Part shown: in pieces, positions 3,884 through 28,532 of the stretch
Layout: every line of letters starts with the position of its first letter
Position numbering within the stretch: the first letter of the stretch is position 1
Origin: Gemmata obscuriglobus
GTDB taxonomy: Bacteria; Planctomycetota; Planctomycetia; Gemmatales; Gemmataceae
Assembly: GCF_008065095.1 (NCBI RefSeq)
Contig: NZ_CP042911.1
Location: 7,950,001 to 7,982,000, forward strand
Direction of reading: 5' to 3'
Length of the DNA stretch: 32,000 bases
Program-made: the position numbers and the translations under genes
Notes under the pieces: generated by a model
Told to the model about the DNA's origin: nothing
Database searches by the model: none
The model's input: the letters and a program-made list of their open reading frames with translations, nothing else

Positions 3884-4218
3884 CGAATCGGTCCGATCGG
3901 GCGGGTTCGGCGCCCGGACGGCATTCGCCGCCCAATACGCTCGAGAAGGGCGCGGGTTGCGCACAGGGGGTCGACGTACACGGTGTCCGTGCTACGCAGC
4001 CAGCGTCACAGCCAACCGCCGTCGATACCGTTGGTACGCGGAACATTTTACGCAGTCACCCAACAATCGAAACCCTGATCTTGCAGACGCCGGCTCATAA
4101 ATGGGTTTTCTCCTGACGAGCCGCGTCGGTGAACCGCCTCCGAACCGTGAAAATCGGCAACGTACATCGGCGCGCGAAAACCGTTCGCTTAGGGTTTGTG
4201 CGTAACAGGAGGTCCAAA

Positions 4219-4821
4219 ATGCCCAATCCCCTCAAATGGCCGAGCGAAGACGAGGGCCGCCGACTTCACGCGACCCTGCCCGGCACCGATCCGGCTGCCA
4301 CATCCACTTTCGCTGACGCATTTTACGATCCGTTGTGCGCATACCTGACCCGCACCTACCGCCACGTCCCCGAGGATCTGCTTGTGAGCGTTGCGGGCGA
4401 TCTGATCTTGAAACTGATTCAACACCCGGAACAGTATGACCCGAAACAACTTCCGGTGTGCGCGTACCTGCGGATGGCCGCGCGACGCAAGTTGACCACC
4501 GCCTGTGAGCGCGAAACCCGGCGCCGGCGGCGCGAAGTTTCGCTCGATTTTGTCGCGGATCCGCCTGCTGCCGGGAACAGGTTCCCGGGGACCGGTGACG
4601 GGCCGAATTGGGCGCACCCGGCGCTCGCGGCGGAACTCGCCACCCTCTCCCCTGCGGAACAGACCACGTTCGGGCTCCTGCGCGACGGCGTCCGCGACAC
4701 CGGCGCGTTCGCCCGGGCGCTCGGGTTGAACACGGACCGCCCGGACGTCGCGATCGTTGTCAAACGGATCAAAGACACCCTCAAGGCGCGACTGCGGCGC
4801 GCCGTCGGAGGTCGGCCATGA
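4219..4821 (+). CDS. Sigma-70/ECF-like RNA polymerase sigma factor-like protein
   Basis: AGGAGG (4208-4213) lies 5 nt before ATG 4219. A region-2-like segment is present (FADAFYDPLCAYLTRTYRHVPEDLLVSVAGDLILKLIQHPEQYDPKQLPVCAYLRMAARRKL). A region-4-like HTH is also present (LSPAEQTTFGLLRDGVRDTGAFARALGL...VKRIKDTLKARLRR). The stop overlaps the next start as ATGA at 4818-4821. Confidence 0.6.
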   Translation: MPNPLKWPSEDEGRRLHATLPGTDPAATSTFADAFYDPLCAYLTRTYRHVPEDLLVSVAGDLILKLIQHPEQYDPKQLPVCAYLRMAARRKLTTACERETRRRRREVSLDFVADPPAAGNRFPGTGDGPNWAHPALAAELATLSPAEQTTFGLLRDGVRDTGAFARALGLNTDRPDVAIVVKRIKDTLKARLRRAVGGRP

Positions 4822-5940: not shown

Positions 5941-7200
<1,260 letters not shown>

Positions 7201-7347
7201 GAACAACAAAACGGGTCTCACCGCGGAGAGCATGAGAGGGCGCCGCGCGCGGAAAATTGGCCAGACGATCTTCATCGTTCGGTTTCCCCTCTCTGCGCCC
7301 GTTCGTACCCTCTGCGGCGAAACCTCTTTCTTCTCGGAGGCGTTCCA

Positions 7348-9231
7348 ATGCCCGGATCGAACGGCGTGCTGACCGAGCCGCAACAGCAACTCGCGAACGA
7401 GATCGCCCGCGCGGGCGGGCCGAAGTTCGCCCACCCCGACGACGCCGGGTCGGTCGGCGTCACCATGTTCGACCTGCCCGGCAGCGACGACCTCACCGTC
7501 ACGGTGCTGCTCGGGCGCGACCACCTTCAGCTCGCGCCGTCGCAGTCGCTGGTGCGGATCAAGAGCCGCAAGGACGAGCGCAACTACCTCGGGGTGGTCA
7601 CCGCCGGCCCGTTCGCCGAGCCGGACGGGCTCCGCGCCGACTCCGACATCCTCAAGGCCGTCGCCACCCACCGCGGCGACTACCTGCCGCCGTTCCACGG
7701 CCGCGTTCAGGTGACCATCCTCGGCGAAGAACTCAAGGGCGGCGAACTGGCCCCGCCGCGCCTGCGCCCGCTCCCCAACAGCCCGGTGTTCGTGCTCGAC
7801 GACGCGGACGCCGCCCGCGTGCTGAAGTGCGGCGGGAACGTGCGGCTCGGGCTGGCGGTGGGGCACCAGACCGTCGAGGTCGGGGCGCCGTCGCACGCCA
7901 AGGCCGTGTTCCCCCGCCACACCGCGGTGCTCGGCACCACCGGCGGCGGGAAGTCCACCACCGTCGCGGGCCTCATCGCCCGGGCGCGGGCGGCCGGGAT
8001 GGCGGTCGTCGTGCTCGACGTGGAAGGCGAGTACACCGCGCTGCACCAGCCCACCGACCACAAGACGATGTGCGACGGGCTCCGCGCCCGGGGGCTGGCA
8101 CCCGCGGGCGTGCCCGAGCAGGACATGACGGTCTACCACCTGGTGGGCCGCGGGACGGCGAACCCGGACTTCCCGAACTGCAAGCCGTTCTCGCTCCAGT
8201 TCGCCCGGCTCTCGCCCTACGCCGTGATGGAGATCCTCGACCTCTCCGACGCCCAGCAGGAGCGGTTCCTGAAGGTGTACGACATCGCCAAGCCGCTCCT
8301 CCGCGACCTCGACATCTTCCCGCAAAGGGGGCACCCCGAGCAGGAGCAGATGGCGCTCGACCTCGACGAGTTCGAGCGCGGCTACCCGCGGGTCACCGTC
8401 CCGCTGCTCATCGACATCACCCGCGCGTGCGCGCTGCGGGCCGAGCCCAAGGGCGACAAGAAGCGCGGGAAGAAGGGCGACGACGACGCCGACGACGCCC
8501 CGACCTTCGACCCGTGGTGCCGCGAGCTGAAGCAGTCCGGCGCGGTCGACCACCTGAACAAGCGGGTCCACGCGGCGAACCCGCCGGGCAACACGGTGTC
8601 GTGGCACGCGGTCCACGGCCGGCTGTCGCGGCTGAACCGGCTCAAGGTGTTCTTCGACGAGACCCGCGACGGCACCCAGCCGCTGAAGTACGCGAACCTG
8701 CTGAAGCCCGGCGCGCTGTCCGTGATCGACCTGTCGGACACCGGGTTCTCGGAGCTGAACAACCTCGTCATCGCGGACATCCTGCGGGGCATCCAGGACG
8801 CGCAAGACCTCGCGTGCGAAAAGGCCGAGCAGCAGAAGTCGGCGCCGACGCCGGTGCTGATCGTGATCGAGGAGGCGCACGAGTTCCTGAGCGAGGAGCG
8901 GATCAACAAGACCCCGGTGCTGTTCGAGCAGGTGGCGAAGATCGCGAAGCGGGGCCGCAAGCGGTGGCTCGGGCTGTGCTTCGTCACGCAGCTCCCCGCG
9001 CACCTCCCGAAGCAGGTGCTGGGGCTGTGCAACTCGTTCATCCTCCACAAGCTGCAAGACCCGCAGGTGGTGACGCTGCTGAAGCGCACCGTCGGCGGCG
9101 TGGACGAAGGACTCTGGGACCGGCTCCCGAACCTCGCCCCGGGTCAGGCGGTGGTCAGCTTTCCGCACTTCGCCCGACCGCTGTTGGTCAGCATCGACCC
9201 GAGCCAAGCGAAGCTGCGTCTGGCGGAATGA
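7348..9231 (+). CDS. herA: HerA-type hexameric ATPase/translocase (HAS-barrel + FtsK/HerA P-loop, DUF87-like)
   Basis: GGAGG lies 8 nt before ATG 7348. An N-terminal barrel-like region is present (LVRIKSRKDERNYLGVVTAG...PLPNSPVFVLDD). Walker A is RHTAVLGTTGGGKSTT and Walker B is PVLIVIEEAHEFL. The C-terminal LCFVTQLPAHLPKQVLGLCNSFILHKLQDPQ is typical of HerA/DUF87. Confidence 0.9.
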   Translation: MPGSNGVLTEPQQQLANEIARAGGPKFAHPDDAGSVGVTMFDLPGSDDLTVTVLLGRDHLQLAPSQSLVRIKSRKDERNYLGVVTAGPFAEPDGLRADSDILKAVATHRGDYLPPFHGRVQVTILGEELKGGELAPPRLRPLPNSPVFVLDDADAARVLKCGGNVRLGLAVGHQTVEVGAPSHAKAVFPRHTAVLGTTGGGKSTTVAGLIARARAAGMAVVVLDVEGEYTALHQPTDHKTMCDGLRARGLAPAGVPEQDMTVYHLVGRGTANPDFPNCKPFSLQFARLSPYAVMEILDLSDAQQERFLKVYDIAKPLLRDLDIFPQRGHPEQEQMALDLDEFERGYPRVTVPLLIDITRACALRAEPKGDKKRGKKGDDDADDAPTFDPWCRELKQSGAVDHLNKRVHAANPPGNTVSWHAVHGRLSRLNRLKVFFDETRDGTQPLKYANLLKPGALSVIDLSDTGFSELNNLVIADILRGIQDAQDLACEKAEQQKSAPTPVLIVIEEAHEFLSEERINKTPVLFEQVAKIAKRGRKRWLGLCFVTQLPAHLPKQVLGLCNSFILHKLQDPQVVTLLKRTVGGVDEGLWDRLPNLAPGQAVVSFPHFARPLLVSIDPSQAKLRLAE

Positions 9232-11106: not shown

Positions 11107-11934
11107 TCACTCCGCGAGGTAGTGGGAGACGTGGACGGTCACGGCCAGTTCGGTCGCACGCGGGTCGTCCGACGCGACCTCGTCTTCCTCAAGCACGTAA
11201 CCGACCGCGGCCAGTAGGGCACTGCACCGCTGATCCGTCATCATGCGGTCCGGCCGGACGGAGGCGGCGTGCCCGTAGTTCAGCGAAGACACCACGCCGA
11301 GTTGCCGCCCGGCCGCCCGGGCCAGGCGCTCGGCGCGGCCCCGGGCGGCCCGGTACGCCTCGGCTGAAGCCCGGGTCAGTTGCTCATCGGTCGGCCGGGC
11401 GATGTACACGAATTTGGGCGAGCGGTCGTCCTCCGGTTGGGTCGCTTTTGCGATCATATGCTGGATCTGTGCCGCCGGGTCGGCCCACGGTAAGGGCTCC
11501 CGCTCCGACGTCGGCTCCGACGGGTTGACGTTCGCCGCGACATCGAACCGGAGTTGATCGACCAAACTCAACACCGCGTCGGCCGACAGCCCGGTAATGT
11601 CCCAGGTGGCCGCCACCGCCACGTTCACGCCCCGCCGGTCCTCCGGGGTCGCTCCCCGCGCGCCGCGCCCGGCGGCCGCACGCATCCGGGCGATCGGGTC
11701 GGGGTCGGCCTGATCGTCGGGGTGCGAATCGCCGGCCCAGGCGCGGGTGGCCCCCAGGCGCATCAGCCGGCGCACGGTGTCGTCTGCCAACTGGTGCATC
11801 TCAGCCAGTGAGGCGTCCAGGGTGGCCCCGGCGGCCCGAACGCGAGCGATCATGAGCAGAACCGACGGCCTTTGCCGGACGACCGCGGTGGCATTGGCGC
11901 TGACCATCGATCGAACAGAGGTAGATTCGGCCAT
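11107..11934 (-). CDS. SIMPL/DUF541-like protein
   Basis: TDEQLTRASAEAYRAARGRAERLARAAGRQLGVVSSLNYG matches the SIMPL signature as I remember it (A..A...A...A..LA.aaG..LG.v.s). ATG 11934 (MAESTSV...) was chosen over the ORF-track start at 12003. Confidence 0.55.
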   Translation of the reverse strand: MAESTSVRSMVSANATAVVRQRPSVLLMIARVRAAGATLDASLAEMHQLADDTVRRLMRLGATRAWAGDSHPDDQADPDPIARMRAAAGRGARGATPEDRRGVNVAVAATWDITGLSADAVLSLVDQLRFDVAANVNPSEPTSEREPLPWADPAAQIQHMIAKATQPEDDRSPKFVYIARPTDEQLTRASAEAYRAARGRAERLARAAGRQLGVVSSLNYGHAASVRPDRMMTDQRCSALLAAVGYVLEEDEVASDDPRATELAVTVHVSHYLAE

Positions 11935-12646: not shown

Positions 12647-14731
12647 TTAAAGCGTGTGGGGCGAGGCGGGAATCGACTGGAGCAGGGCGGTCACCTCGTT
12701 GAGGTCGACCGGCTTCACGAGGTGGTGGTTGAAGCCCGCCTCTTGCGACCGGCGCCGGTCGTCGTCCTGGCCGTAGCCGGTCATCGCGATGAGCGTCACG
12801 TCCCGGAGGCCCGGGATCTGGCGCAACCGGGTCGCGACCTCGTAACCGCTCATGCGGGGCAGCCCGATGTCGAGCAGCACGACACCGGGAGGGTGCGCCG
12901 CGGCGTCGCGGAGCGCGGCCGGGCCGTCGTGCGCGGTCCGCACCGTGTGGCCGCTCAGCGACAAAAGCTCGGCCAGGCTTTCGGCCGAATCGACGTTGTC
13001 GTCCACGATCAAGAGCCGGTGGGTCGCGGGGGCCGCGTGCGTCGGCTCGCCGTTCGGGCGTGTACCCGCGGTGCCCGTCCCGAGGGCCGGCAGGCGGACC
13101 ACGAACTCGCTCCCGCGCCCGGGGCCGGCGCTGTGCGCCTCGACGCTCCCGCCGTGCAGCTCGACGAGGTTGCGCACGAGGGTGAGGCCGATGCCGAGGC
13201 CGCCCTGCGCGCGGTCCAGCGTGCGCGGCTCCTGGGTGAACAGGTCGAACGCCCGCAGCAGCATCTCGGGGCTCAGCCCGATCCCGTTGTCGCGGACGCG
13301 GACCACCGCCCCGCCGCCCTCGCGCGCGGCGCTCAGCTCGATGCGCCCGCCGGGGTCGGTGTACTTCGCGGCGTTGTTCAGCAGGTTGCCGAAGATCTGG
13401 GTCAGCCGCGTCGGGTCGGCGTCGAGCGGGATCGGGTCCGGCGGGACGGAAACGATCAGCTCGTGCCGCCGGGACTCGATCAGCGGGCGGGCCGTTTCGA
13501 CCGCCCGGGCGATCGCGTCCGCGAGCGCCACCCGCTCCCGGTGCAGGGTCACCTTCCCGCTCGTCAGCCGCGACACGTCGAGCAGGTCGTCCACCAAGTG
13601 GGCCATCTGCCCCACCTGGCGGCCCAGGATGCCGGTCAGCCGGGCCACGTCGGGGTCGTCGGACTTGGTGGACTGGAGGACGTAGACGGCGTTGCGCACC
13701 GGGGCGAGCGGGTTGCGCAGCTCGTGGGCCAGCATCGCCAGGAACTCGTCCTTGCGCCGGTCCGCGTCCGCGAGTTCTTTGGCGCGCAGCCGCAGCTCGG
13801 TTTCCAGGCGCTTCCGCTCCACCGCGCTGCCGATGACGTCGGCCAGCGCTTGCGCGTACTGGATCTCGTCGGGGGTGAACCGGCGCGGGGCGTGGGTGTA
13901 CGCGCCGAGCAGCCCGAACGGGCGCGGGCCGCGGCCGGGGATGCGCACGACCAGCCCGCTCGCGGCGCCCGCCGCTTTCAGGTCCGGGTCCAGCGGGGCA
14001 CCGCCCCCGGGGTCGCCGAGCGCGACGGCCCCTTCGGAGCGCAGCGCGGTGTCGATCCGGGGACTTGTGCCGGGGCGCAGCAGGGCGGACGGTTCGGCCC
14101 AGCCGGAACCCGCGAGCCGCCCCCACTCGCCCCCGCCGGGCAGGAGTTCGAGCACCTCGGCCAGCTCGGCGCCCACCGTTTCGGCGAGCCGGCGGACCGC
14201 GTCGCCGCACAGTTCCACGATGTCGTGGCCCGCCAGCGCGGCCCGCGCGGACTGTGCGAGGGACGCCTGCTGCCGCCCGCGGGCGCGCAGCTCGGCGTCG
14301 CGGACCACCCGCTCGGTGACGTCCGCGACGAGCGTCAGCGTGCCACCGGCGTTCACCCCGGTGACGAGCGGGAGCACCCGCACCGACTGCTGCATTAGCG
14401 ATTGCGGCGCCCCGGGCACGGGCGTAGGGATGGGAAGCACGTACTTGTGGAACTGTTGCGAGAGGATCGCCGTTTGCCCGGCCAGCGCCTGCCGGTAGTA
14501 CCGTTCGAGCCCGCGGGCCGCGAGATCCGGGAACAGGTCCAGCAGCCCGCGCCCCAGCACCGCCGCGGCGGGCCACCCGCTGGCCCGCTCCAGCCACCGG
14601 TTCCAACCGGTCACGACAAGCCCGGCGTCCGTCGCGAGGAGGCCCCAGTCCCCGACGGCGTCCAGTTCGCGAACGAGATCGGCCGATACAACCATCTGTT
14701 CACTCGTTCGCGTGCGCCCCGGTGTCCTCAC
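12647..14731 (-). CDS. Hybrid sensor histidine kinase (PAS - GAF - HisKA - HATPase_c - REC)
   Basis: PAS-like N-terminus: LLATDAGLVVTGWNRWLERASGW. GAF-like middle: GLLGAYTHAPRRFTPDEIQYAQALAD. H-box: DEFLAMLAHELRNPL. N-box: NLLNNAAKY. G-boxes: RDNGIGL and GGLGIGLTLV. C-terminal receiver: LLIVDDNVD...VVLLDIGLPRMSGYEV...IAMTGYGQ...HHLVKPV. The GTG start overlaps the cheC stop as GTGA at 14728-14731. ATG 14695 is an alternative start. Confidence 0.93.
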   Translation of the reverse strand: MRTPGRTRTSEQMVVSADLVRELDAVGDWGLLATDAGLVVTGWNRWLERASGWPAAAVLGRGLLDLFPDLAARGLERYYRQALAGQTAILSQQFHKYVLPIPTPVPGAPQSLMQQSVRVLPLVTGVNAGGTLTLVADVTERVVRDAELRARGRQQASLAQSARAALAGHDIVELCGDAVRRLAETVGAELAEVLELLPGGGEWGRLAGSGWAEPSALLRPGTSPRIDTALRSEGAVALGDPGGGAPLDPDLKAAGAASGLVVRIPGRGPRPFGLLGAYTHAPRRFTPDEIQYAQALADVIGSAVERKRLETELRLRAKELADADRRKDEFLAMLAHELRNPLAPVRNAVYVLQSTKSDDPDVARLTGILGRQVGQMAHLVDDLLDVSRLTSGKVTLHRERVALADAIARAVETARPLIESRRHELIVSVPPDPIPLDADPTRLTQIFGNLLNNAAKYTDPGGRIELSAAREGGGAVVRVRDNGIGLSPEMLLRAFDLFTQEPRTLDRAQGGLGIGLTLVRNLVELHGGSVEAHSAGPGRGSEFVVRLPALGTGTAGTRPNGEPTHAAPATHRLLIVDDNVDSAESLAELLSLSGHTVRTAHDGPAALRDAAAHPPGVVLLDIGLPRMSGYEVATRLRQIPGLRDVTLIAMTGYGQDDDRRRSQEAGFNHHLVKPVDLNEVTALLQSIPASPHTL

Positions 14732-15348: not shown

Positions 15349-15719
15349 TGGGCGGCCCCCTGGCGCCCGAGCGCGGCGGCGACGGCCCGGAGGACGGCGT
15401 CGGCGGCGAGCGGCTTGGGCACGAACCCGGACGCCCCGCCCGCGTCGGCCAGTTCGCGGGTGGAGGTCTGCACGTCGGCGGTGGCCATCACCACCACGGC
15501 CCCCGGGTCCATCACCCGGAGCTGCCGGAGCACCTCCAGCCCGTTCATCTCGGTCATCGTCACATCGAGCAGCACGAGGTCCGGCTTGTCGAGCGCGTAC
15601 CGCTCCAGCGCGGCCAGCCCGTCCGGCACGTCCGCGACGCTGTGCCCCGCGCCCTCCAGGATGCGGCGCGAGACCCGCCGCGACAGGGCCGAGTCGTCCA
15701 CCACCAGGATTTTCGCCAT
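15345..15719 (-). CDS. cheY: CheY-like single-domain response regulator
   Basis: MAKILVVDDSALSRR...DLVLLDVTMTEMNGLEVL...VVMATAD...FVPKPL. ATG 15719 shares one nt with the cheB stop (TGATG). The ORF-track N-terminal extension is Arg/Gly-rich and overlaps cheB. Confidence 0.9.
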   Translation of the reverse strand: MAKILVVDDSALSRRVSRRILEGAGHSVADVPDGLAALERYALDKPDLVLLDVTMTEMNGLEVLRQLRVMDPGAVVVMATADVQTSTRELADAGGASGFVPKPLAADAVLRAVAAALGRQGAAQ

Positions 15720-16756
15720 CACAGGGCCTCCAGAATCGCCTCGGCCATCTGATCCAGCGGGACCGCCCGGTCGCTCAGCCCGCCCTCCGCCACCGACCGC
15801 GGCATCCCGTAGACCACGCACGACGACTCGGCCTCGGTGAACACCCGGCCGCCCTGCGCCTTGATCCACGCCGCCCCCTGTGTGCCGTCCGACCCCATGC
15901 CGGTGAGCACCACCCCGAGCGTGCGTTCGCCGTACACCTCGGCCGCCGAGCGGAACAGCACGTCCACCGCCGGCCGGTGCGGCGTGTCGAGCGGGTGCAG
16001 GCTCAGCCGGGCGGCCACCGTTCCGTCCCGCTGGCGGGCACACGTCAGGTGGTGTCCGGCGGGCGCGACCAGCGCCGCGCCCGGACGAAACGTATCGCCC
16101 TCGCGCGCCTCGGACACGGCCACGCGCGCGACCGCTGCAAGGCTCCTGGCGAAAAGCTCAGTGTAGCCGACCGGCATGTGCAGGACTATCGCAATCGGCA
16201 CCGGGAAGTCCGCCGGGAACCGGGGGACGAGGTGCTTGAGGGCCTGCGGCCCGCCCGTCGAAACCCCGACCACCAGCACGTCGGCCCGTTTGGCCTTCGG
16301 CGCGGCGGCCGGGGGCGGCGCACCGGGGAGCGGCCCCCGGGCCACGGGGGCCACGCGCGCGGCGGCGACGGCCTTCACCGTCGCGATCAGCCGGTCGGCC
16401 ACCTCGAACACCTTCTCGGTGGCCAGCGCGGTCGGCTTCTGGACCACCTCGACGGCGCCGGCCTCGAGGGCACGCACCGCCAGCTCGTCGCTCTCGCCCG
16501 CGGTGCTCAGGACGACGACCGGGAGCGGCCGCTTGGCCATCTGCCGCTTGAGGAAGTCGAGCCCGTCGGACCGGGGCATGTGGAGGTCGAGCGTGACCAC
16601 GTCCGGCCGGAGCGCCTCCACCTGTTCGAGCGCCTCGTCGCCGTCCCGCGCCACCCCGACCACTTCGAGGAACGGGCTCCGGGCCAGCATCTGGCGGACG
16701 GATTTGCGGACGTACGCGGAGTCGTCCACGATCAAGACACGCACGATGTCGTTCAC
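15719..16756 (-). CDS. cheB: Protein-glutamate methylesterase CheB (REC + methylesterase)
   Basis: The receiver reads RVLIVDDSAYVRK...VVTLDLHMPRSDG. The catalytic domain has VVGVSTGGPQAL, IVLHMP and GVVLTGMGSDG (the Ser/His/Asp triad contexts). Confidence 0.95.
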   Translation of the reverse strand: MNDIVRVLIVDDSAYVRKSVRQMLARSPFLEVVGVARDGDEALEQVEALRPDVVTLDLHMPRSDGLDFLKRQMAKRPLPVVVLSTAGESDELAVRALEAGAVEVVQKPTALATEKVFEVADRLIATVKAVAAARVAPVARGPLPGAPPPAAAPKAKRADVLVVGVSTGGPQALKHLVPRFPADFPVPIAIVLHMPVGYTELFARSLAAVARVAVSEAREGDTFRPGAALVAPAGHHLTCARQRDGTVAARLSLHPLDTPHRPAVDVLFRSAAEVYGERTLGVVLTGMGSDGTQGAAWIKAQGGRVFTEAESSCVVYGMPRSVAEGGLSDRAVPLDQMAEAILEAL

Positions 16757-22690: not shown

Positions 22691-22867
22691 TTAGAAGTGA
22701 CTCACACTCTCCGCGCAGAGGGCCGGGGGCCGTGCAAGCGTCTTGGAAGCTGGTAAGCAGGCGCGACACTCCCGGAGGAAGGCCCGCATAGCGGCTTCCT
22801 CGTGTGCGTACTGCTGCCGACGGGCCTGCCGCGCGACCGCCTTCGCAACCCGCTCCGACTTCTTCAT
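22691..22867 (-). CDS. Small hypothetical protein (58 aa), last unit of the cassette-like array
   Basis: ATG 22867 (MKKSERVAKAVARQARRQQYAHEEAAMRAFLRECRACLPASK...) is preceded on the coding strand by CTTCGGA-AGGCGTGCCGCG. This is the same leader layout as the other array genes. Confidence 0.4.
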   Translation of the reverse strand: MKKSERVAKAVARQARRQQYAHEEAAMRAFLRECRACLPASKTLARPPALCAESVSHF

Positions 22868-22879
22868 CGCGGCACGCCT

Positions 22880-22973
22880 TCCGAAGTTGAACTTACAGTT
22901 CACCGCCGCACCCCCCGCGACCGGTGCCGGGAAAAACCCAGGGGTCGCGGTCCGATGTAGCGGCGGGTTCGGC
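22880..22973 (-). repeat. attC-like imperfect palindrome, diverged copy G
   Basis: Plus strand: TCCGAAG...CAGTTCACC...CCGCGACC/GGTCGCGG inner stem...GTTCGGC (22967-22973). It lies between the GYF-TPR stop (22990) and the small ORF start (22867). Confidence 0.6.
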
Positions 22974-22989
22974 TGTTTGGCGGCCCCCC

Positions 22990-23901
22990 CTACCCCCCCA
23001 GCAGTTCAAGGACCCTCGCACGACCCGCCTGGGTATTCGCCAGGTACGACCGCGCCGTCGATTCCAGCGAGCGCCGGCGGGACCGCGCGCGCGGGAAGAG
23101 CCAGCCCCAGAGGGCGGACAAGCCCACGCGCGCGCGTTCCGCAAGTTGGCCCTCAATCAGTGGGACGGCCTGCTCGTACTGGTCGAGCGCTTCCGGGTAA
23201 CGGCCCTGATCGCACAGGACGGCGCCCAGGTTGCAAAGCGCCCCGCCCAGGAGGACCGCCGTCCACGGGTCGTTCGGGCGCGCCTGCAACAACTGACTGC
23301 GGATCGCCACCGCCTTCCCGATCGACGCCTTCGCCTCGTCCAGCGCGCCGAGGTCGCGGTGGAGCAGGCCCCGCTGGTTGAAGCTGGCGGCCAGTGCCTG
23401 CTGGTACTCGTGGTCCCGGGGCGCGGAGCGGGCGAGCCGCTCGCGGATCGCGCCCGCCTCGTCGAGCGCCCACCCCGCGCTGCCGAGGCGGCCCGCGGAC
23501 TGGTGGAGCGCGCCGAGGGCGAAGTAGCACTCGGCCAGAGCCGCCGCGTTCGCGGGCACGTCCGGGCGGCGGAGGGCGGCTTGGGCGGCAAGCGCCGCGA
23601 GCGCCCAACACGTCGCCTCCTGGTGGGCCGCGCACGCGTCGTGCCAGTGCCCCGTGCTCAGCCCGCCGCCCATCGACCGCCCGCGGGCGGCCACGGCCAC
23701 CAGCCGCTGGCCTTCGTCTTCCGGCTCCCCTCCGAGGAGGTTCGCAACAAGGAACTGGGCCTCCCGACCTCGCGCCGCCACCTTACGCCACGCCAGATCG
23801 GTGGGCCGGAGAACCCCAGCGGCCACCAACTGATCGATCTGGGATACCGTGGCCGGGCCGCGCTCGACGCCATTGAGGGTGTAATACCAGTCGATTGGCA
23901 T
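22990..23901 (-). CDS. GYF_2 (DUF4339)-domain protein with TPR-like repeats
   Basis: The N-terminal IDWYYTLNGVERGPATVSQIDQLVAAGVLRPTDLAW is the GYF_2 pattern. TPR-like helices follow (NLGAVLCDQGRYPEALDQYEQAV; LLHRDLGALDEAKASIGKAVAI). Confidence 0.8.
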   Translation of the reverse strand: MPIDWYYTLNGVERGPATVSQIDQLVAAGVLRPTDLAWRKVAARGREAQFLVANLLGGEPEDEGQRLVAVAARGRSMGGGLSTGHWHDACAAHQEATCWALAALAAQAALRRPDVPANAAALAECYFALGALHQSAGRLGSAGWALDEAGAIRERLARSAPRDHEYQQALAASFNQRGLLHRDLGALDEAKASIGKAVAIRSQLLQARPNDPWTAVLLGGALCNLGAVLCDQGRYPEALDQYEQAVPLIEGQLAERARVGLSALWGWLFPRARSRRRSLESTARSYLANTQAGRARVLELLGG

Positions 23902-23911
23902 CGCTCCATCC

Positions 23912-23995
23912 GCCGCTAAAAGAACAGTTCACCTGCACCGCCACGTCCCGAGCCGCGGTGCAGGTGAACTGCTCCGCGGCGCTGTCGGGTTCGGA
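23912..23995 (-). repeat. attC-like element, short variant A
   Basis: A perfect 17 bp palindrome is formed by CAGTTCACCTGCACCGC (23925-23941) and GCGGTGCAGGTGAACTG (23955-23971). GTTCGGA follows at 23989-23995. It lies between the stop at 24003 and the start at 23901. Confidence 0.65.
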
Positions 23996-24002
23996 TCGGC
24001 GC

Positions 24003-24383
24003 TCACCCCGCATCCACCCTGTATCCCAGCGCCGAGGCCGCGCGCTCGACCAGTGGCCAGGCGGGGCCGTCCACCTCGTCCGGGCTACCGAAGAACAGCT
24101 CCGAGTCCGGCATGACGCAACAGGCGGCCACGTTGCCGAGGTCGTCGCCGAACGAGACACACACGGCCGCATGCTGAACCGACTGGAGTCTCGCCAGTCG
24201 CTCCCACTTGCCGGGCAGCGCGTCTGAGAACCGCAGGGTGGCAGCGATCATGCCTGCCACATGGTCTTGGCCTGCGTCCGGATCGGCGTGAACCTCGGCG
24301 AACTCGTCCGCCAACCGGCGGATCACGTCCGCGACCGACAGGGGGGCGCCACCTTCGGGTGGGAGGAGTTTCACGAACGCCAC
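24003..24383 (-). CDS. Hypothetical protein (126 aa)
   Basis: The GTG 24383 start is preceded on the coding strand by GTTCGGCACCCGGAGGGAGGGTGACTG. Composition is coding-like and no domain was recognised. Confidence 0.6.
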   Translation of the reverse strand: MAFVKLLPPEGGAPLSVADVIRRLADEFAEVHADPDAGQDHVAGMIAATLRFSDALPGKWERLARLQSVQHAAVCVSFGDDLGNVAACCVMPDSELFFGSPDEVDGPAWPLVERAASALGYRVDAG

Positions 24384-24483
24384 CAGTCACCCTCCCTCCG
24401 GGTGCCGAACGAATCCATGCAAGCAATGTGTGCCACGGTGAGGGCTGCTCGCCCTTGGGATCTCGGAGGCTTGCGACGGCATC

Positions 24484-24722
24484 GGACACCATTCTGGCGA
24501 TCGACCTGGGTCGGTACAAGAGCGTGGCGTGCGGTTACCAGCGGAGCACTCAGGAGCACACGTTCCGCACCTTGGACACGCCCCCGCGACAATGGACCAA
24601 CTGTTGGCCCGATACCCGGGCGCGGTGCTGGTGATCGAGGCGTGCTCGAACGCCGGGTGGGGTCGCGGCGGGCGGTCGCGGCTGGGCACACCGTTAAGGT
24701 GACCAACACCGCGAACGGCGTG
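24484..24722 (+). pseudogene. IS110-family transposase fragment (N-terminal ~75 codons, frameshifted, no start codon)
   Basis: DTILAIDLGRYKSVACGYQRSTQEHTFRTLDT (frame a), then MDQLLARYPGAVLVIEACSNAGW (frame b), then HTVKVTNTANG (frame c). This matches the conserved IS110 DEDD N-terminus (ILAIDLGK.KSV.C.......F.T......L..LL....P..VVIEAC..AGW......G..V.VANT) as I remember it. It is truncated near 24722. Confidence 0.65.
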
Positions 24723-24769
24723 AATTGTCCCGTGATACCAATTATTCTGTGCGTACCGATTGGCGGCAC

Positions 24770-25612
24770 TTATCGTTCGTCCAGGACCTCGCCACCGTTT
24801 GGCGTTATGGCGCCCCAATAAATCGTTTCGGCGATCGAAGGCGAGACGGTTCCGACGGACCCGTCCGCGCGGGCAACAATCATCCCGCCCCGGTGCGGGG
24901 TCTGCGCGAGGGACGGATCGCACCTCTCGGCGAACGGCATCGGCAGAACCTGAAACGTCACGGCTCCCCGGCTGCCGCGACTGACGGGCGGGGCCGCCGA
25001 TGTCACGGGGTAAACGTCGTTCAAGTTGCGGCCGCCGGCGACCGGGCCGCCGTCGGCGAACGTCGCTCGCCGCGCGACGACGGCCACATCGGTGTACGTG
25101 TACTCGGTGGCCGTGTCCGCGCACCGGGCGAACCGCTCCGCCAGCAGTACGGTGTTCGAGGTGCCGTCCGTGAACGTCGCGGCCAACGAGGGCGAGCCCT
25201 CGAGCGCGAACGCGTTGACGGCGTAGCTGGTCAGGGTGGCGAAGGAGACGTCGGGGGTCAGCGTCGGGTCCGCCGGGCTGCGGTAGACGGGACAGACGTA
25301 GTTGAACGCCCGGTTCTCGCGCCGGAGCCGGTACAGCGCGTCCTGCTCGACGTAGGGGAGAACGAAATCGAACGGAGAGTCGATCGGGTGGTTAATGCTC
25401 CCCTTCCTCGCATCAATCGAGGGGAGGCGCCCGTCGTGCGTGTTCGCCACGTTGTGAAGGGCCAGGGCGATTTGTCGCATGTTGTTCGAGCTGCGCATGC
25501 GCACCGCGGTCTCGCGGACCTTCTGGACCGCGGGGAGGAGGAGGCCGATCAGCACCGCGAGGATCGCGATGACGACCAAAAGCTCGATCAGAGTGAACCC
25601 GGTGCGGCGCAT
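24770..25612 (-). CDS. DUF1559 protein with prepilin-type N-terminal methylation motif (H-x9-DG pseudopilin-like)
   Basis: GGAGGGGAG lies upstream of ATG 25612. The N-terminus is [34 protein letters not shown], followed by [12 protein letters not shown]. The C-terminal [12 protein letters not shown] is H-x9-DG. This family is characteristic of Planctomycetota. The ORF-track upstream extension to 26026 is Arg-rich and overlaps other features. Confidence 0.9.
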
Positions 25613-25806
25613 GTCGCTCCCCTCCGTGGAACTTGTGGCGCGTTGGTCCGAACCCGCCGTTGTCGAGCACCCGCTTCCGGGCGAAGAACCGGACCGCGGT
25701 AACGTTGCCCACTGGCGACGTAGACGCCGCGTTGCGTTTGACCTGTGGGAAGCAGCCGACGCCGCAGCTACACTACGGCGTCCGGGACCGGCCCGTCGTA
25801 CCCGCG

Positions 25807-25905
25807 GCCGAAGCACACCGGGTGCTCCGGCGGCAGGTGCTCGTCGCACCGATACCGCCCGGCCACGACGGCCCCGCGACTGATCCGCGTCGGGGTCAGT
25901 TCGGT
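25807..25905 (-). repeat. Degenerate attC-like element (copy I)
   Basis: On the coding strand it reads ACCGAAC (25905-25899)...GAGCACCTGCCGCCGG...CTTCGGC (25813-25807). A further GTTCGGA core (25653-25647) lies 35 nt before the DUF1559 start. Confidence 0.3.
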
Positions 25906-26183
25906 GGCGTTCTCCAGGTCGTATACCACCGATTGCACACCGCACACCGACCGACGGCCGGCTTGCCCTCCAGCGGAACGAGGGACATCGACTCCCACTC
26001 CACCCGCACGTCCGGCCGCTCCTCACTCAGCACCGCCGCCAATGCCGCGAGCACAGCCTTGCGGATTTGCTCATCCGCTTGCAACGGTAATAAGGTGCGG
26101 CGGGCAACCTCGGGGTCCTGATCGACGAGGAAGGAGATCGTTAGAAGCGTCGTCTCAGTTGCCAACTGATGCCCCCCGCGCAT
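25896..26183 (-). CDS. Hypothetical protein (95 aa)
   Basis: ATG 26183 is preceded on the coding strand by GTTCGGCAGCGGAAGGCGCGA. The sequence reads [52 protein letters not shown]... The stop follows immediately after CCGAAC. Confidence 0.55.
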
Positions 26184-26197
26184 TCGCGCCTTCCGCT

Positions 26198-26273
26198 GCC
26201 GAACGAACAGCCCACCAGCACCGCCACCGGATGAACGATGCGTCCCGAATCAGCCGGCGGTGTCAGGTTCGGC
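26198..26273 (-). repeat. attC-like imperfect palindrome, copy B (centre type II)
   Basis: GCCGAAC (26198-26204) - CCACCAGCACCGCC - ...GGATGAACGATGCGTCCCGAATCAGCC - GGCGGTGTCAGGT - GTTCGGC (26267-26273). The upstream ORF stops inside it at 26250. Confidence 0.85.
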
Positions 26274-26702
26274 GCGTTGCCACCTCGCGTCGGTGGGGTA
26301 CTGGCCCTTCTCCCACTCGCCACACTCTCCGCACACCCAACCGTGATCCACCCACCCGTTCGGGGTGTAACGGAACACGACTACCTCTTGGGCGTCCGGC
26401 CCGAGTACCCGCCGCCCGCCGGAGAACAGCAGGACGGCGGCTGACGCTGAGGCCGCCTGGCCGTGGTTGACGCTGATGCACACCACGCCGCACGCCTCCA
26501 GCCGCAGCGCCGGGCTGACTGGGCCGCGAACGTCCACGCACCCGCCGGAGTTGGCGTAGCCGGGGTGATCCTCAATGAACCACGAGGTCGGCGCGAACCG
26601 GATGCCGGTGTGGGCGGACAGCGACTCCACCAGTCCGCCGAGCATCCGCCGCCACTCGGCCTCGGGGCGGTAGCCAGGATTCTTGTTGAACACCGACTCC
26701 AC
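26250..26702 (-). CDS. Hypothetical protein (150 aa)
   Basis: The GTG 26702 start is preceded by GTTCGGCAAGAGAGGCGCTGGG. The sequence reads (M)ESVFNKNPGYRPEAEWRRMLGGLVESLSAHTGIRFAPTSWFIEDHPGYANSGG...GWVCGECGEWEKGQYP. The TTG start at 26771 in the ORF track lies inside repeat C and was not used. Confidence 0.6.
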   Translation of the reverse strand: MESVFNKNPGYRPEAEWRRMLGGLVESLSAHTGIRFAPTSWFIEDHPGYANSGGCVDVRGPVSPALRLEACGVVCISVNHGQAASASAAVLLFSGGRRVLGPDAQEVVVFRYTPNGWVDHGWVCGECGEWEKGQYPTDARWQRAEPDTAG

Positions 26703-26717
26703 CCCAGCGCCTCTCTT

Positions 26718-26807
26718 GCCGAACAAACAGCCCACCGGCACCGCCACGTCCCGAGCCGCGATGCGTCGCAATACTGCGGCGGTGTTAGGTGCCGCGACTG
26801 ATTCGGC
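26718..26807 (-). repeat. attC-like imperfect palindrome, copy C (centre type I)
   Basis: GCCGAAC (26718-26724) - AAACAGC - CCACCGGCACCGCC - ACGTCCCGAGCCGCGATGCGTCGCAATACTGC - GGCGGTGTTAGGTG - ...ATTCGGC (26801-26807). It fills the gap between the stop at 26811 and the start at 26702. Confidence 0.85.
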
Positions 26808-26810
26808 GTC

Positions 26811-27068
26811 CTACGCTGCCGAGGCGACGGCGAACCGAACTCCGGCCAGCAAGCCAACAGTTCCGAACACCAGAACCTCGTTGACGGCCAAGTACGCCCA
26901 CCGCCACTGCTTGAACGCCGGATAGTCCACGAACGCCCGAGTGCCGATCCGACCCTGCGGAACCAGGAGCGGGATCGCCAGCCCCCACCAACTTAGGCAC
27001 GCCGCCGGGGCGAGCATCAGGAGCATCGCGGCGACATGGAGGTCGATCTCACTCCACAACCGCTGCAC
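26811..27068 (-). CDS. Small membrane protein (85 aa, two hydrophobic segments)
   Basis: The GTG 27068 start is preceded by GTTCGGCGAGGGAGGGCTCCGGG. The hydrophobic segments are HVAAMLLMLAPAACLSWWGLAIPLLV and WAYLAVNEVLVFGTVGLLAGV. Confidence 0.6.
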   Translation of the reverse strand: MQRLWSEIDLHVAAMLLMLAPAACLSWWGLAIPLLVPQGRIGTRAFVDYPAFKQWRWAYLAVNEVLVFGTVGLLAGVRFAVASAA

Positions 27069-27084
27069 CCCGGAGCCCTCCCTC

Positions 27085-27175
27085 GCCGAACAAACAGTTC
27101 ACCTGCACCGCCACGCCCCGAGCCGCGGTGCGTCGCAATACCGCGGCGGTGTCAGGTGCCGCGCCGGAGGCGGCG
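27085..27175 (-). repeat. attC-like imperfect palindrome, copy D (centre type I)
   Basis: GCCGAAC (27085-27091) - AAACAGTT - CACCTGCACCGCC - ACGCCCCGAG - CCGCGGT GCGTCGCAAT ACCGCGG - CGGTGTCAGGTG (ending at 27158). The distal heptamer is degenerate (GGAGGCGGC). Confidence 0.85.
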
Positions 27176-27193
27176 TGCCTTTGGTGCCAGCCG

Positions 27194-27694
27194 CTACCGG
27201 ACCCGCTTGAAGTACTCGCGGATGCCGCCGATCTGGGTCGTCACCCAGTACGCGTCCGGGCCGTCGAACTGGATGATCGTGAACTCGCTCAGTTCCATCA
27301 CGCCGTCCAGCGGCGACGGCTTGTCCTTGATCTCGCGGATGACGACCGAGTGCTTGTCCTTGCCCAGCACGGCGTACCGGTCCGTCTCCGCTTGGCCGTT
27401 GAGGTCGGTCGTGAGGGCCGTCGCGGTGTACGTCACGCGCAGCTTGCCGAACAGGGTGCGGAGGGCGGCCTCCTGCTTGTCGTCCACCGGCTTCCGCTCC
27501 CGGATGCCGGCGACGGTCCGGTCGGCGTCGGACTGCCAGGTGCCGAGCAGCCGGTCGTCGGTCATGCGGGTGAGTCGAACGGGGGCCGCAACCGCCACCA
27601 CCAGAGCGGCGAGCAGACCGGCCGCCGCGACCATCGACGCGACGGCAACCCATTTCCACCGCCGCGACGACTGCTCGCCTTTACCCACCCGCAT
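27194..27694 (-). CDS. Hypothetical membrane-anchored protein (166 aa)
   Basis: ATG 27694 is preceded by GTTCGGCAAGGGAGGAGCG. An N-terminal anchor or signal is present (RRWKWVAVASMVAAAGLLAALVVAVAAP), followed by a soluble domain. The ORF-track extension to 28150 reads through repeats E and F and the tRNA-like gene. Confidence 0.65.
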   Translation of the reverse strand: MRVGKGEQSSRRWKWVAVASMVAAAGLLAALVVAVAAPVRLTRMTDDRLLGTWQSDADRTVAGIRERKPVDDKQEAALRTLFGKLRVTYTATALTTDLNGQAETDRYAVLGKDKHSVVIREIKDKPSPLDGVMELSEFTIIQFDGPDAYWVTTQIGGIREYFKRVR

Positions 27695-27706
27695 CGCTCC
27701 TCCCTT

Positions 27707-27794
27707 GCCGAACAATGAACTCACCTGCACCGCCATCACCGGATGAGCGGTGCGTCCCGAATCAGCCGGCGGTGTCAGGTGCAGCGTCTGGGGC
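27707..27794 (-). repeat. attC-like imperfect palindrome, copy E (centre type II)
   Basis: GCCGAAC (27707-27713) - AATGAACT - CACCTGCACCGCC - ATCACCGGATGAGCGGTGCGTCCCGAATCAGCC - GGCGGTGTCAGGTG - CAGC GTCTGGGGC (the distal heptamer is degenerate). Confidence 0.85.
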
Positions 27795-27809
27795 GGCCTC
27801 GGCCGCGCA

Positions 27810-27835
27810 GGGAATGCGCGATGCACGGCATTCCC
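27810..27835 (-). terminator. Stem-loop GGGAATGC / GCATTCCC immediately 3' of the tRNA-like gene
   Basis: An 8 bp stem (27810-27817 / 27828-27835) with a 10 nt loop lies 11 nt downstream of the tRNA-like 3' end. There is no U-run. Confidence 0.3.
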
Positions 27836-27845
27836 GGGACACGAA

Positions 27846-27957
27846 TGCGGCGGGCGGGATTCGAACCCGCGAAGGTCGTCACCCGAAGGTGAACCCCACC
27901 CCGGCCCGACGCGGTTACGCGACGGGACAGGTGCCGTCTCCACTGGGCTACCGCCGC
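27846..27957 (-). ncRNA. tRNA-shaped RNA gene (112 nt) with canonical acceptor, D and T arms but no anticodon loop
   Basis: The minus-strand sequence is GCGGCGG-TA-GCCCAGTGGAGACGGC-A-[61 nt]-GCGGGTTCGAATCCCGC-CCGCCGC-A. It has a 7 bp acceptor stem, U8, an A14/G18G19-type D loop and a perfect GTTCGAATC T loop. The anticodon position is occupied by a ~14 bp rod (CCTGTCCCGTCGCG-TAAC-CGCGTCGGGCCGG, two mismatches) capped by a tetraloop. A 10 bp variable arm capped by TTCG follows. I found no 5 bp stem with a 7 nt U33-containing loop anywhere in the central 61 nt. Confidence 0.5.
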
Positions 27958-27979
27958 ACGCGCGCCTGCGCCCTCGGGT

Positions 27980-28070
27980 GCCGAACGAACAGCCCACCTG
28001 CACCACCATCACCCGATGAGCGATGCCGTCCAAACTACATGGCGGTGTCAGGTGCAGCGCCGGGTTCGGC
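27980..28070 (-). repeat. attC-like imperfect palindrome, copy F
   Basis: GCCGAAC (27980-27986) - GAACAGCC - CACCTGCACCACC - ATCACCCGATGAGCGATGCCGTCCAAACTACAT - GGCGGTGTCAGGTG - CAGCGCCGG - GTTCGGC (28064-28070). It lies between the DUF4259 stop (28080) and the tRNA-like gene. Confidence 0.85.
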
Positions 28071-28079
28071 CTGAACACC

Positions 28080-28427
28080 TTACCCGGCCCTCTGCTGCAT
28101 CGCCTCCAGCGGCGCCGCGATGGAGGCCCGCCGCGGTGCCACGTCCTCATCCCGGTAGTAGCTGTCCAGCCCCTCGTCCGAGTCGCATACCCCGAGGAAC
28201 CGTGCCGACCACCGGGCCACGATTGCCGCGTCCACGTGCGCCCGGCACCGCTCGACCAGGAAAGCCAGTACCACCAGCCGAGCCGCCACCTCGTCGTCCA
28301 CGTCGTGGACGTTCAACTCCGGATCGGCCGCGAACCGGTCGAGCTCGGCGACGAGTTGCCGGGCAAGGCCGCAGGCGTACTCGCAGGCGTCGTCGCTTTG
28401 GAAGGTGTCGGTGCCCCACCGCCCCAT
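28080..28427 (-). CDS. DUF4259-like protein (115 aa)
   Basis: ATG 28427 is preceded by GTTCGGCGAGGGAGGGCGATGGGAC. The N-terminal MGRWGTDTFQSDDACEYACGL matches the DUF4259 opening (MG.WG.G.F.ND.A.D) as I remember it. Confidence 0.7.
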   Translation of the reverse strand: MGRWGTDTFQSDDACEYACGLARQLVAELDRFAADPELNVHDVDDEVAARLVVLAFLVERCRAHVDAAIVARWSARFLGVCDSDEGLDSYYRDEDVAPRRASIAAPLEAMQQRAG

Positions 28428-28481
28428 GTCCCATCGCCCTCCCTCGCCGAACCAGTGTTTGGTGTGCGAAGGAACGCCCAG

Positions 28482-28532
28482 CAGCCCCAAGCCTGGTATC
28501 AAGCCTAAAGACTTATACCGGGCTTGGGGCTG
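28482..28532. other. Long hairpin CAGCCCCAAGCCtGGTAT ... ATACCgGGCTTGGGGCTG between the oxidoreductase gene and the first array gene
   Basis: About 17 bp pair, with one mismatch, around a 15 nt A/T-rich loop. A second short stem AGCAAG-TGC-CTTGCT lies at 28540-28554. Neither is followed by a U-run. Confidence 0.45.

Follow-up and report, generated by a model that had tools for sequence, protein, structure and literature searches.

A decaying cassette array, probably the remains of a chromosomal integron, in Gemmata obscuriglobus

What kind of element is the imperfect palindrome that separates a run of small, co-directional genes on the chromosome of Gemmata obscuriglobus, and in what state is the array that it forms? 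The repeats lie in a stretch of 32,000 nt (contig NZ_CP042911.1, positions 7,950,001 to 7,982,000; hereafter the window, in whose own coordinates its features are given), and an initial annotation had taken them for an integron cassette array without an integrase. We consider it probable, at roughly 0.88, that a former chromosomal integron has left its cassette array here, that the repeats are attC sites of a Gemmataceae type, that the integrase gene (intI) and most of the attI site have been deleted, and that the sites are decaying. The proposal of a cassette array, or cluster of attC sites lacking an integron integrase (CALIN; Cury et al. 2016, PMC4889954), is borne out by a link of the same repeats to integrases in other genomes, by a shared core, by the architecture of attC and by a remnant of attI.

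A repeat search grouped the copies and recovered the family far beyond chance where it had been proposed. All six occurrences of the L-arm motif CACCNGCACCRCC in the 32 kb fall within 23930-27995. A well-preserved copy has, on the plus strand, GCCGAAC and 8 nt, then CACCTGCACCGCC, about 30 nt of centre, GGCGGTG-T-CAGGTG, a further 9 nt and a closing heptamer, and each match in the window lies on the minus strand, 3' of a minus-strand open reading frame (ORF) or RNA gene. The left spacer, given earlier as 6-8 nt, is always 8 nt (5 unpaired and 3 paired), which is why a pattern with a 7-nt spacer matched nothing. The closing heptamer is GTTCGGC in copy F, ATTCGGC in C, AGGCGGC and GGGCGGC in D and E, and GTTCGGC out of register in B; accordingly, the description of the outer heptamers as exact inverted repeats holds in F only, C being near-intact and D and E being without AAC. 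The two sequence types of the centre, one in C and D and the other in B and E, were found as described. So was the conserved unpaired T, which is joined on the same arm by a second conserved bulge, a C on the plus strand. The sites, with outer core boxes R'' and R' and inner boxes L'' and L', are as follows.

27980..28070, minus strand: attC F, the sole fully canonical site of the window (L-box pairs 9/9; GCCGAAC/GTTCGGC intact)
27707..27797, minus strand: attC E, R'' degenerated to GCCGCCC with loss of AAC; the R box folds with just 4 bp
27085..27174, minus strand: attC D, R'' degenerated to GCCGCCT; no R box in the minimum-energy fold
26718..26807, minus strand: attC C, R'' GCCGAAT and L-box mismatches; fails the strict L-box rule
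26198..26280, minus strand: attC B, truncated on the R''/L'' side, with deletions in the model alignment
24404..24410, minus strand: orphan R' core, GTTCGGC on the top strand, 5' of the next ORF
23912..23980, minus strand: attC in advanced decay, reduced to a short perfect hairpin without the bulge or R'; score at noise level
22886..22973, minus strand: last attC, of a different stem type, R' GTTCAAC

Related arrays were sought by scanning genome contigs with a 19-base half-site pattern, most matches of which are chance matches in GC-rich genomes. Arrays among the matches listed come from G. algarum (L095), from a Gemmata metagenome-assembled genome (MAG; L026, L036, L044, L079 and L117) and from a further contig, L065; a metagenome scan added 19 loci, including an array of 17 sites (L148). 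In every related locus the copies share one orientation and the ORFs lie on the strand equivalent to the minus strand of the window, and an arrangement of one site per ORF 3' end in a single orientation is seen also in L026, L036, L065, L079, L095, L117, L125, L136, L138 and L148. The terminal attC of L044 (109-192) and of L065 (4294-4380) retains only the G of R'. The centre of site E is almost identical to that of an attC in G. algarum (L095, 2713-2803), while the neighbouring cassettes are unrelated; these attC sequence types are therefore common to G. obscuriglobus and G. algarum.

The family is physically linked to integron integrases. In L044 a tyrosine recombinase lies 680 bp from the array and matches the "integron integrase" profile TIGR02249 with 398.7 bits (cut-off 265). 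L125 is a complete integron, with a full-length integrase (IntI; 450 bits with TIGR02249), attI and 12 attCs on one strand, one of them of the window type (13701-13792, 90 bits). L136 has an IntI (452 bits) followed by attI and eight attCs, and in L124 an IntI (460 bits) is followed by cassettes with a related attC type bearing the same core. A G. algarum contig, L130, encodes an IntI (424 bits) and ends inside attI, before any cassette. Hence attCs stand directly downstream of IntI in four loci (of the window type in L044, L125 and L136). The attI crossover core is GTTCGGC in L044, L124 and L125, and GTTAGGC in L136; L130 breaks off short of it. In all five integrase loci (L044 1030-2058; L124 8001-9160; L125 10001-11140; L130 10001-11534; L136 3480-4665) intI lies upstream of attI on the same strand, and attI comes after the stop codon of intI and has repeated inverted motifs of the GTGTTA...TAACAC type; in 4/4 loci that reach cassettes, intI is co-directional with them. 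These enzymes share 64-72% identity with a large number of annotated integron integrases, those of Thiobacillus, Gallionella and Propionivibrio among them. In one proteobacterial relative (L129), ordinary genes and not cassettes follow intI.

Some further observations concern these loci themselves. The IntI of L044 (1204-2058, minus strand) lacks about 42 N-terminal residues (profile 43-313 of 315) and may be another decaying integrase. In L125 the same attC is present three times (11797-11888, 13153-13244 and 15651-15742), so a cassette may be triplicated there; a run of N at about 11190-11680 marks an assembly gap just after its attI. A 255-kb metagenome contig (L147) carries a solitary attC outside any array (4051-4141, plus strand, 93 bits), about 280 bp from a tRNA-Ser gene (4422-4514, minus strand). 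L065 (CAZKIQ010000141.1) is a 5.4-kb contig binned as Alcaligenaceae that holds a five-site array of the Gemmata type, and it is therefore probably mis-binned.

To score the window sites, two covariance models were used: R1, built from 33 attC sites of other Gemmataceae arrays and containing no window sequence, and R2, built from 21 non-window attCs, none with the stem type of the window. Six window sites are significant, between 22886 and 28070, on the minus strand throughout and with 28-81 bits (R1/R2: F 80.9/60.2; E 72.5/51.7; C 62.2/47.9; D 47.5/34.0; B 43.1/28.5; 22886-22973 33.8/36.4). The opposite strand of these sites gives at most about 25 bits, and 740 kb of unrelated GC-rich DNA, each piece of which contains the half-site pattern, gave two matches only, at about 21 bits. 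Of the copies listed earlier as diverged or short, that at 22886-22973 is significant, that at 23912-23980 is marginal (18.4/19.6 bits, inside the noise of the control, and 40.5 bits in an nhmmer search with a profile of the window copies), and that proposed at 25807-25905 is unsupported (9.5 bits, E 1.3). Rfam has no attC family and gave no significant match at the attC sites. A match at 7078-7161 on the minus strand (R2 23.6 bits, R1 17.7 bits) was rejected; it lies within a coding region, its core GCCGACC/GGTCGGC is without AAC/GTT, and it is probably a chance hairpin.

The architecture of the family is that of attC. On the coding (top) strand it runs R'' GCCGAAC, 5 nt, GCT, G, CA(C/G)C(T/G/A)G, A and stem, and back through stem, 6 nt, AGC, 5-6 nt and R' GTTCGGC, around central loops of about 10 to about 60 nt; in the window copies the top strand runs 7 nt, 5 nt, GCT, bulged G, CACCTG, bulged A and stem. 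Both bulged bases are found on the L'' arm in every copy, retained through compensatory changes of the stem, and on the bottom strand, which is the plus strand of the window, they are a C and a T. In attC sites that have been studied, extrahelical bases on the L'' arm mark the recombined strand. Across the 33 non-window sites 95.8% of the cells are paired under the proposed structure, compared with just 26-45% when the partners are slid as a control, and in 10 of the 16 L-helix pairs both partners vary; such double changes occupy 84 cells, where shuffles give 32 +/- 3.9 (0/500 reach the observed value). Shuffling lowers the covariation score from 0.293 to 0.085 (0/500). The GCCGAAC/GTTCGGC R box is nearly invariant in the same sites and 98.7% paired. 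When folded as DNA, F and two L125 sites give exactly the expected shape; in the bottom-strand fold F forms the R box, the 5/5 loop and the bulged L box as anticipated, but E, D, C and B fold imperfectly.

The same layout has been described for the phylum. The Planctomycetes attC covariance model of Ghaly et al. 2021 (PMC8352920, supplementary file 3), made from 188 planctomycete attCs, has the consensus GCCUAAC-AAuGC-GUU-G-CAgCGG-A ... CCGCUG-AaC-UucGuC-GUUAGGC. Our family matches it element by element, with R'' of 7 nt, 5 nt, 3 bp, bulged G, 6 bp, bulged A, the stem, 6 bp, 3 bp, 5-6 nt and R' of 7 nt. It differs in its core (GCCGAAC/GTTCGGC against GCCUAAC/GUUAGGC) and in the first three L-box pairs (GCU/AGC against GUU/AAC).

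If the repeats are attC sites, where are the attI site and the integrase? The head of the array contains the following features.

28482..28532, no strand assigned: strong terminator-like hairpin after the Oxidored_FMN gene, where the attI similarity stops; also the place of spurious hairpin matches to miRNA models
28453..28480, minus strand: crossover-proximal attI remnant of about 28 nt, TGGGCGTTCCTTCGCACACCAAACACTG compared with TGTGCGAAGCCTCGCACACTAAACACTG
28446..28452, minus strand: GTTCGGC core where attI meets the first cassette, with the crossover between G and TT; the same core follows attI in L044, L124 and L125

The top strand of 28453-28480, TGGGCGTTCCTTCGCACACCAAACACTG, agrees in about 22 of 28 positions with the 28-nt end of L130, the G. 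algarum contig with intI, TGTGCGAAGCCTCGCACACTAAACACTG. An attI 18-mer has a single match in the window, with 2 mismatches and exactly beside the first GTTCGGC, where 0.01 matches would be expected by chance. The end of attI in L125, L124 and L044 is related (...ATCTAAT(T/C)(A/C)CA(T/A), followed by GTTCGGC), and the repeated GTGTTA...TAACAC motifs that attI has in L125, L130 and L136 are gone from the window. The window therefore appears to keep the crossover-proximal part of attI and to have lost the rest together with intI; such a surviving piece is a direct pointer to an integron that was once complete and from which intI was deleted. The exact junction of attI remnant and core found no match in the metagenome scan.

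As the initial annotation had stated, the window holds no integrase. A tblastn search with IntI against the window and 10 kb beyond it returned nothing better than E 0.7; from about 11 kb upstream to about 22 kb downstream of the array no frame contains an IntI-like coding sequence and no intI pseudogene is present, and Pfam scans of all large ORFs of the window revealed no integrase. Upstream of the array, on the same strand, stand the Oxidored_FMN gene and the strong hairpin, and downstream lies a che operon. G. palustris G18 and the genome LR593886.1 share the HEAT-HEAT-Oxidored_FMN block with the window; their similarity to it ends at about 28570, and they have no attC there; gene order is thus not conserved in these relatives and synteny stops at the array. 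Nor was any attC found outside the array in 42 kb of G. obscuriglobus, or in 64 kb of the relatives' syntenic DNA, so that copies scattered without regard to genes are absent from both.

With six significant sites within 5.2 kb, a largest gap of 3.2 kb and no intI nearby, the region is formally a CALIN, taken as two or more attCs that lie within 4 kb of each other and have no integron integrase close by (4 kb being the clustering distance of IntegronFinder). It resembles other CALINs in having at least two attCs less than 4 kb apart on one strand, no intI nearby, cassettes mostly of unknown function and an insertion sequence (IS) remnant inside, and it is unlike them in retaining a piece of attI and in that most of its sites are visibly decaying. 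Loss of intI is one of the CALIN origins proposed by Cury et al. (PMC4889954).

Several points weigh against the integron interpretation. R1 and R2 were built from the same element family, and what they show is family membership, not an independent attC call. The published Planctomycetes model was tested through its sequence-only filter hidden Markov model (HMM), retyped from the supplement of PMC8352920, and gave no significant match in the window; the best was F, with 2.2 bits and E 6, in the correct register. The same filter gave just 17 bits for the positive control L124 and 26 bits for L065. The attC models are thus divided: strong matches come from the covariance models of the family, and none that is significant from the filter HMM of the published model. 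Position 4 of the core (G and C in GCCGAAC/GTTCGGC) departs, as had been noted at the outset, from the textbook RYYYAAC/GTTRRRY. Finally, the present inactivity of the array, which we propose below, is read from the sequence alone.

These points leave some room for other explanations of the repeats. The initial annotation had itself named a lineage-specific palindrome akin to repetitive extragenic palindromes (REPs) or bacterial interspersed mosaic elements (BIMEs), and one may add hairpins that act as terminators or stabilise mRNA; in either case the likeness to attC would be convergent. The copies are indeed GC-rich imperfect palindromes between co-directional genes, comparable to REP and BIME elements in the intergenic gaps of enterobacteria and pseudomonads, the published filter does not score them, and F matches the REP-derived Rfam family naRNA4, though weakly and not significantly (25 bits against a gathering score of 59.5). 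However, REPs are 20-40 nt long, spread genome-wide, often in alternating orientation and linked to REP-associated tyrosine transposases (RAYTs), whereas the window elements are about 90 nt long, confined to the array in 42 kb, of one orientation, and belong to a family linked to IntI. That family begins right after integron integrase and attI in L044, L125 and L136, it shares the attI crossover core in L044 and L125, and its orientation is uniform in every array. Two bulges conserved on one arm through compensatory stem changes, and the lack of copies in 36 kb of flanking G. obscuriglobus DNA or 64 kb from relatives, likewise speak against such palindromes, and we regard this explanation as highly improbable. 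Repeated insertion of a miniature inverted-repeat transposable element (MITE) between genes could explain why the copies end in inverted heptamers, are about 90 nt long and are so alike across species (window E and L095 2713-2803). Yet there are no target-site duplications, each gene has strictly one copy, at its 3' end and in a single orientation, and the units between copies are unrelated genes that differ by genome, as expected if gene and site move together. Together with the IntI link of the family, this makes insertion of a MITE hardly credible.

Given that the repeats are attC sites, does the array still work? Site by site, one is intact (F, which alone passes the strict structural rule), four are damaged, one is apparently replaced by an IS remnant, one is nearly gone and one is diverged; the best-preserved sites are those closest to attI. 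Since intI is gone and the R boxes are eroded, most units would now be immobile, and their genes would survive with their own Shine-Dalgarno sites. We therefore think it most likely that the array is a fossil, for the greater part no longer mobile, and that its genes live on as ordinary parts of the chromosome. A different outcome would follow if an intI elsewhere on the 9-Mb chromosome acted in trans on those cassettes that good sites still flank (F, perhaps also E and C), in which case intI would be missing here because a rearrangement split the integron. F is fully canonical and folds correctly, E and C still reach 62-72 bits, the synteny break at the array fits a rearrangement, and about half of CALINs are in replicons that also encode IntI (Cury et al., PMC4889954). 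Against this, R-box or L-box pairing is lost in four of the five best sites, and none of the best 120 IntI relatives, in two lists (67-100% and 64-100% identity), is on a contig of about 9.0 Mb. The collection searched includes complete G. obscuriglobus genomes, and the lists show integrases of G. algarum and Gemmataceae MAGs; the absence therefore hints that there is no intI elsewhere in the genome. An array that is still active in trans seems unlikely to us.

The genes carried by the array were taken from the GenBank record CP025958.1 (also ABGO01000235.1), and are listed here with the other features that lie between the sites.

28080..28427, minus strand: cassette 1 ORF, 115 aa, a GenBank call; DUF4259 19.1 bits, below cut-off
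27846..27957, minus strand: tRNA-like gene, the whole content of the 273-bp cassette 2; 37.9 bits with Rfam tRNA (gathering score 29)
27194..27694, minus strand: cassette 3 ORF, 166 aa, no known family
26811..27068, minus strand: cassette 4 ORF, 85 aa, hydrophobic
26250..26702, minus strand: cassette 5 ORF, 150 aa, with its stop inside attC B
25896..26183, minus strand: ORF of 95 aa in the long unit from 26203 to 24410
24770..25612, minus strand: DUF1559/prepilin-type N-methyl protein, 280 aa (PF07596 68 bits, PF07963 30 bits)
24485..24680, plus strand: frameshifted N-terminal remnant of an IS110-family transposase, a weak match (NF033542, 16.2 bits, E 0.004, profile 2-62)
24003..24383, minus strand: ORF of 126 aa, no known family
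22990..23901, minus strand: GYF + TPR protein, 303 aa (PF14237 and PF13424 among others)
22691..22903, minus strand: doubtful 70-aa ORF overlapping the last attC, with no family match and no GenBank gene call

Measured between the G and TT of successive R' boxes, the units are 466, 273, 622, 367, 520 and 1794 bp long. The cassette genes are mostly orphans, unrelated to the cassettes of other arrays, and most ORFs between the repeats have no family match, the exceptions being the DUF1559/N-methyl protein, the GYF + TPR protein and the weak match to DUF4259. This last family had been assigned to the first gene; the gene is the ORF at 28080-28427 (a frame at 28147-28434 was discarded), and the match falls short of the cut-off. 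An ORF ending inside element B and a unit with only an RNA gene, both described in the initial annotation, are present as claimed.

The RNA gene of cassette 2 has an intact acceptor arm and intact D and T arms; its anticodon region is 46 nt long where 13 nt would be expected. ARAGORN calls it in intron mode only, as Val(cac) with a 33-nt insert, and a whole-window Rfam scan at the gathering threshold missed it. No relatives of it were found among the related loci compared.

The 1794-bp unit contains two or three ORFs and ends at the orphan core 24404-24410, beside the IS110-type remnant. Some IS110-family elements target attC sites. The remnant sits where an attC is expected and appears to have replaced it; the transposase match has no Pfam confirmation and just 16 bits with NCBIfam. 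Elsewhere in the window, at 5953-9231 on the plus strand, a gene for a 415-aa protein without family match is followed by one for a HerA/DUF87-type ATPase, which recalls the gene pairs of defence systems, and a stretch of low GC (0.59-0.64) lies at 9-11 kb.

What would the complete integron have looked like? In a working integron of this lineage, intI would lie upstream of the cassettes on the same strand, attI would follow its stop codon and end in GTTCGGC, cut after the G, and each cassette would consist of one small gene and one attC. By analogy with studied integrons, IntI would bind the folded bottom strand of attC, that is, the plus strand of the window. The folded site would consist of an R box of 7 bp, a spacer of five unpaired nt on either side, and an L box from which a C and a T protrude as extrahelical bases. 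IntI would then be expected to cut R' after its G, just before TT, and so to insert cassettes at attI or release those that lie between attCs; the window sites presumably recombined in the manner of those integrons.

The superintegron of Vibrio cholerae, with its V. cholerae repeats (VCRs), is a sedentary chromosomal integron. The window array is like it in being chromosomal, in having attCs highly similar to each other and in its cassettes of small orphan genes; it is unlike it in being much smaller (about 8 units), in having no integrase, in its core (GTTCGGC, not GTTRRRY) and in that the integrase of the Gemmataceae parent lineage is co-directional with the cassettes. In integrons of the Treponema denticola type, reportedly those of Coleman et al. 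2004 and Boucher et al. 2007, intI is said to be oriented as the cassettes. L044, L124, L125 and L136 have the same layout, with intI upstream of and co-directional with the cassettes and attI after the intI stop codon, and L130 has the same placement of intI and attI, its contig ending before the cassettes. The Gemmataceae integrases differ from that type in being 64-72% identical to a set that includes Thiobacillus, Gallionella and Propionivibrio proteins.

Is the integron of this lineage then something new? Integrons and CALINs are already well known, in Planctomycetes too, and the window adds another example. The co-directional layout of intI, attI and cassettes, the G/C at core position 4 and a cassette with only a tRNA-like gene are mildly unusual. 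In our literature search no paper linking Gemmata with integrons or IntegronFinder was found, nor one stating the orientation of intI in planctomycetes. Tentatively, Gemmataceae may have a distinct, undescribed integron layout, made up of a co-directional upstream intI, an attI with GTGTTA...TAACAC, a fixed GCCGAAC/GTTCGGC attC core, and extrahelical C and T; the tRNA-like RNA of the window would then be a structured RNA gene carried by an integron, and the layout would be distinct despite an integrase about 70% identical to many annotated integron integrases, some of them from Betaproteobacteria. We hold this to be possible, on the doubtful side.

Knowledge of how integrons function is unchanged by the window array. 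If it is a former integron, as we think probable, it would be an integron caught dying, with its integrase deleted, a stub of attI left, its sites eroding one by one and an IS remnant apparently replacing one of them, and hence a concrete case both of how a CALIN originates and of how captured cassettes turn into ordinary chromosomal genes. The related loci provide a clean set of Gemmataceae attC and attI sites, usable for better detection models, and Gemmata would join the planctomycetes with integron-derived DNA.

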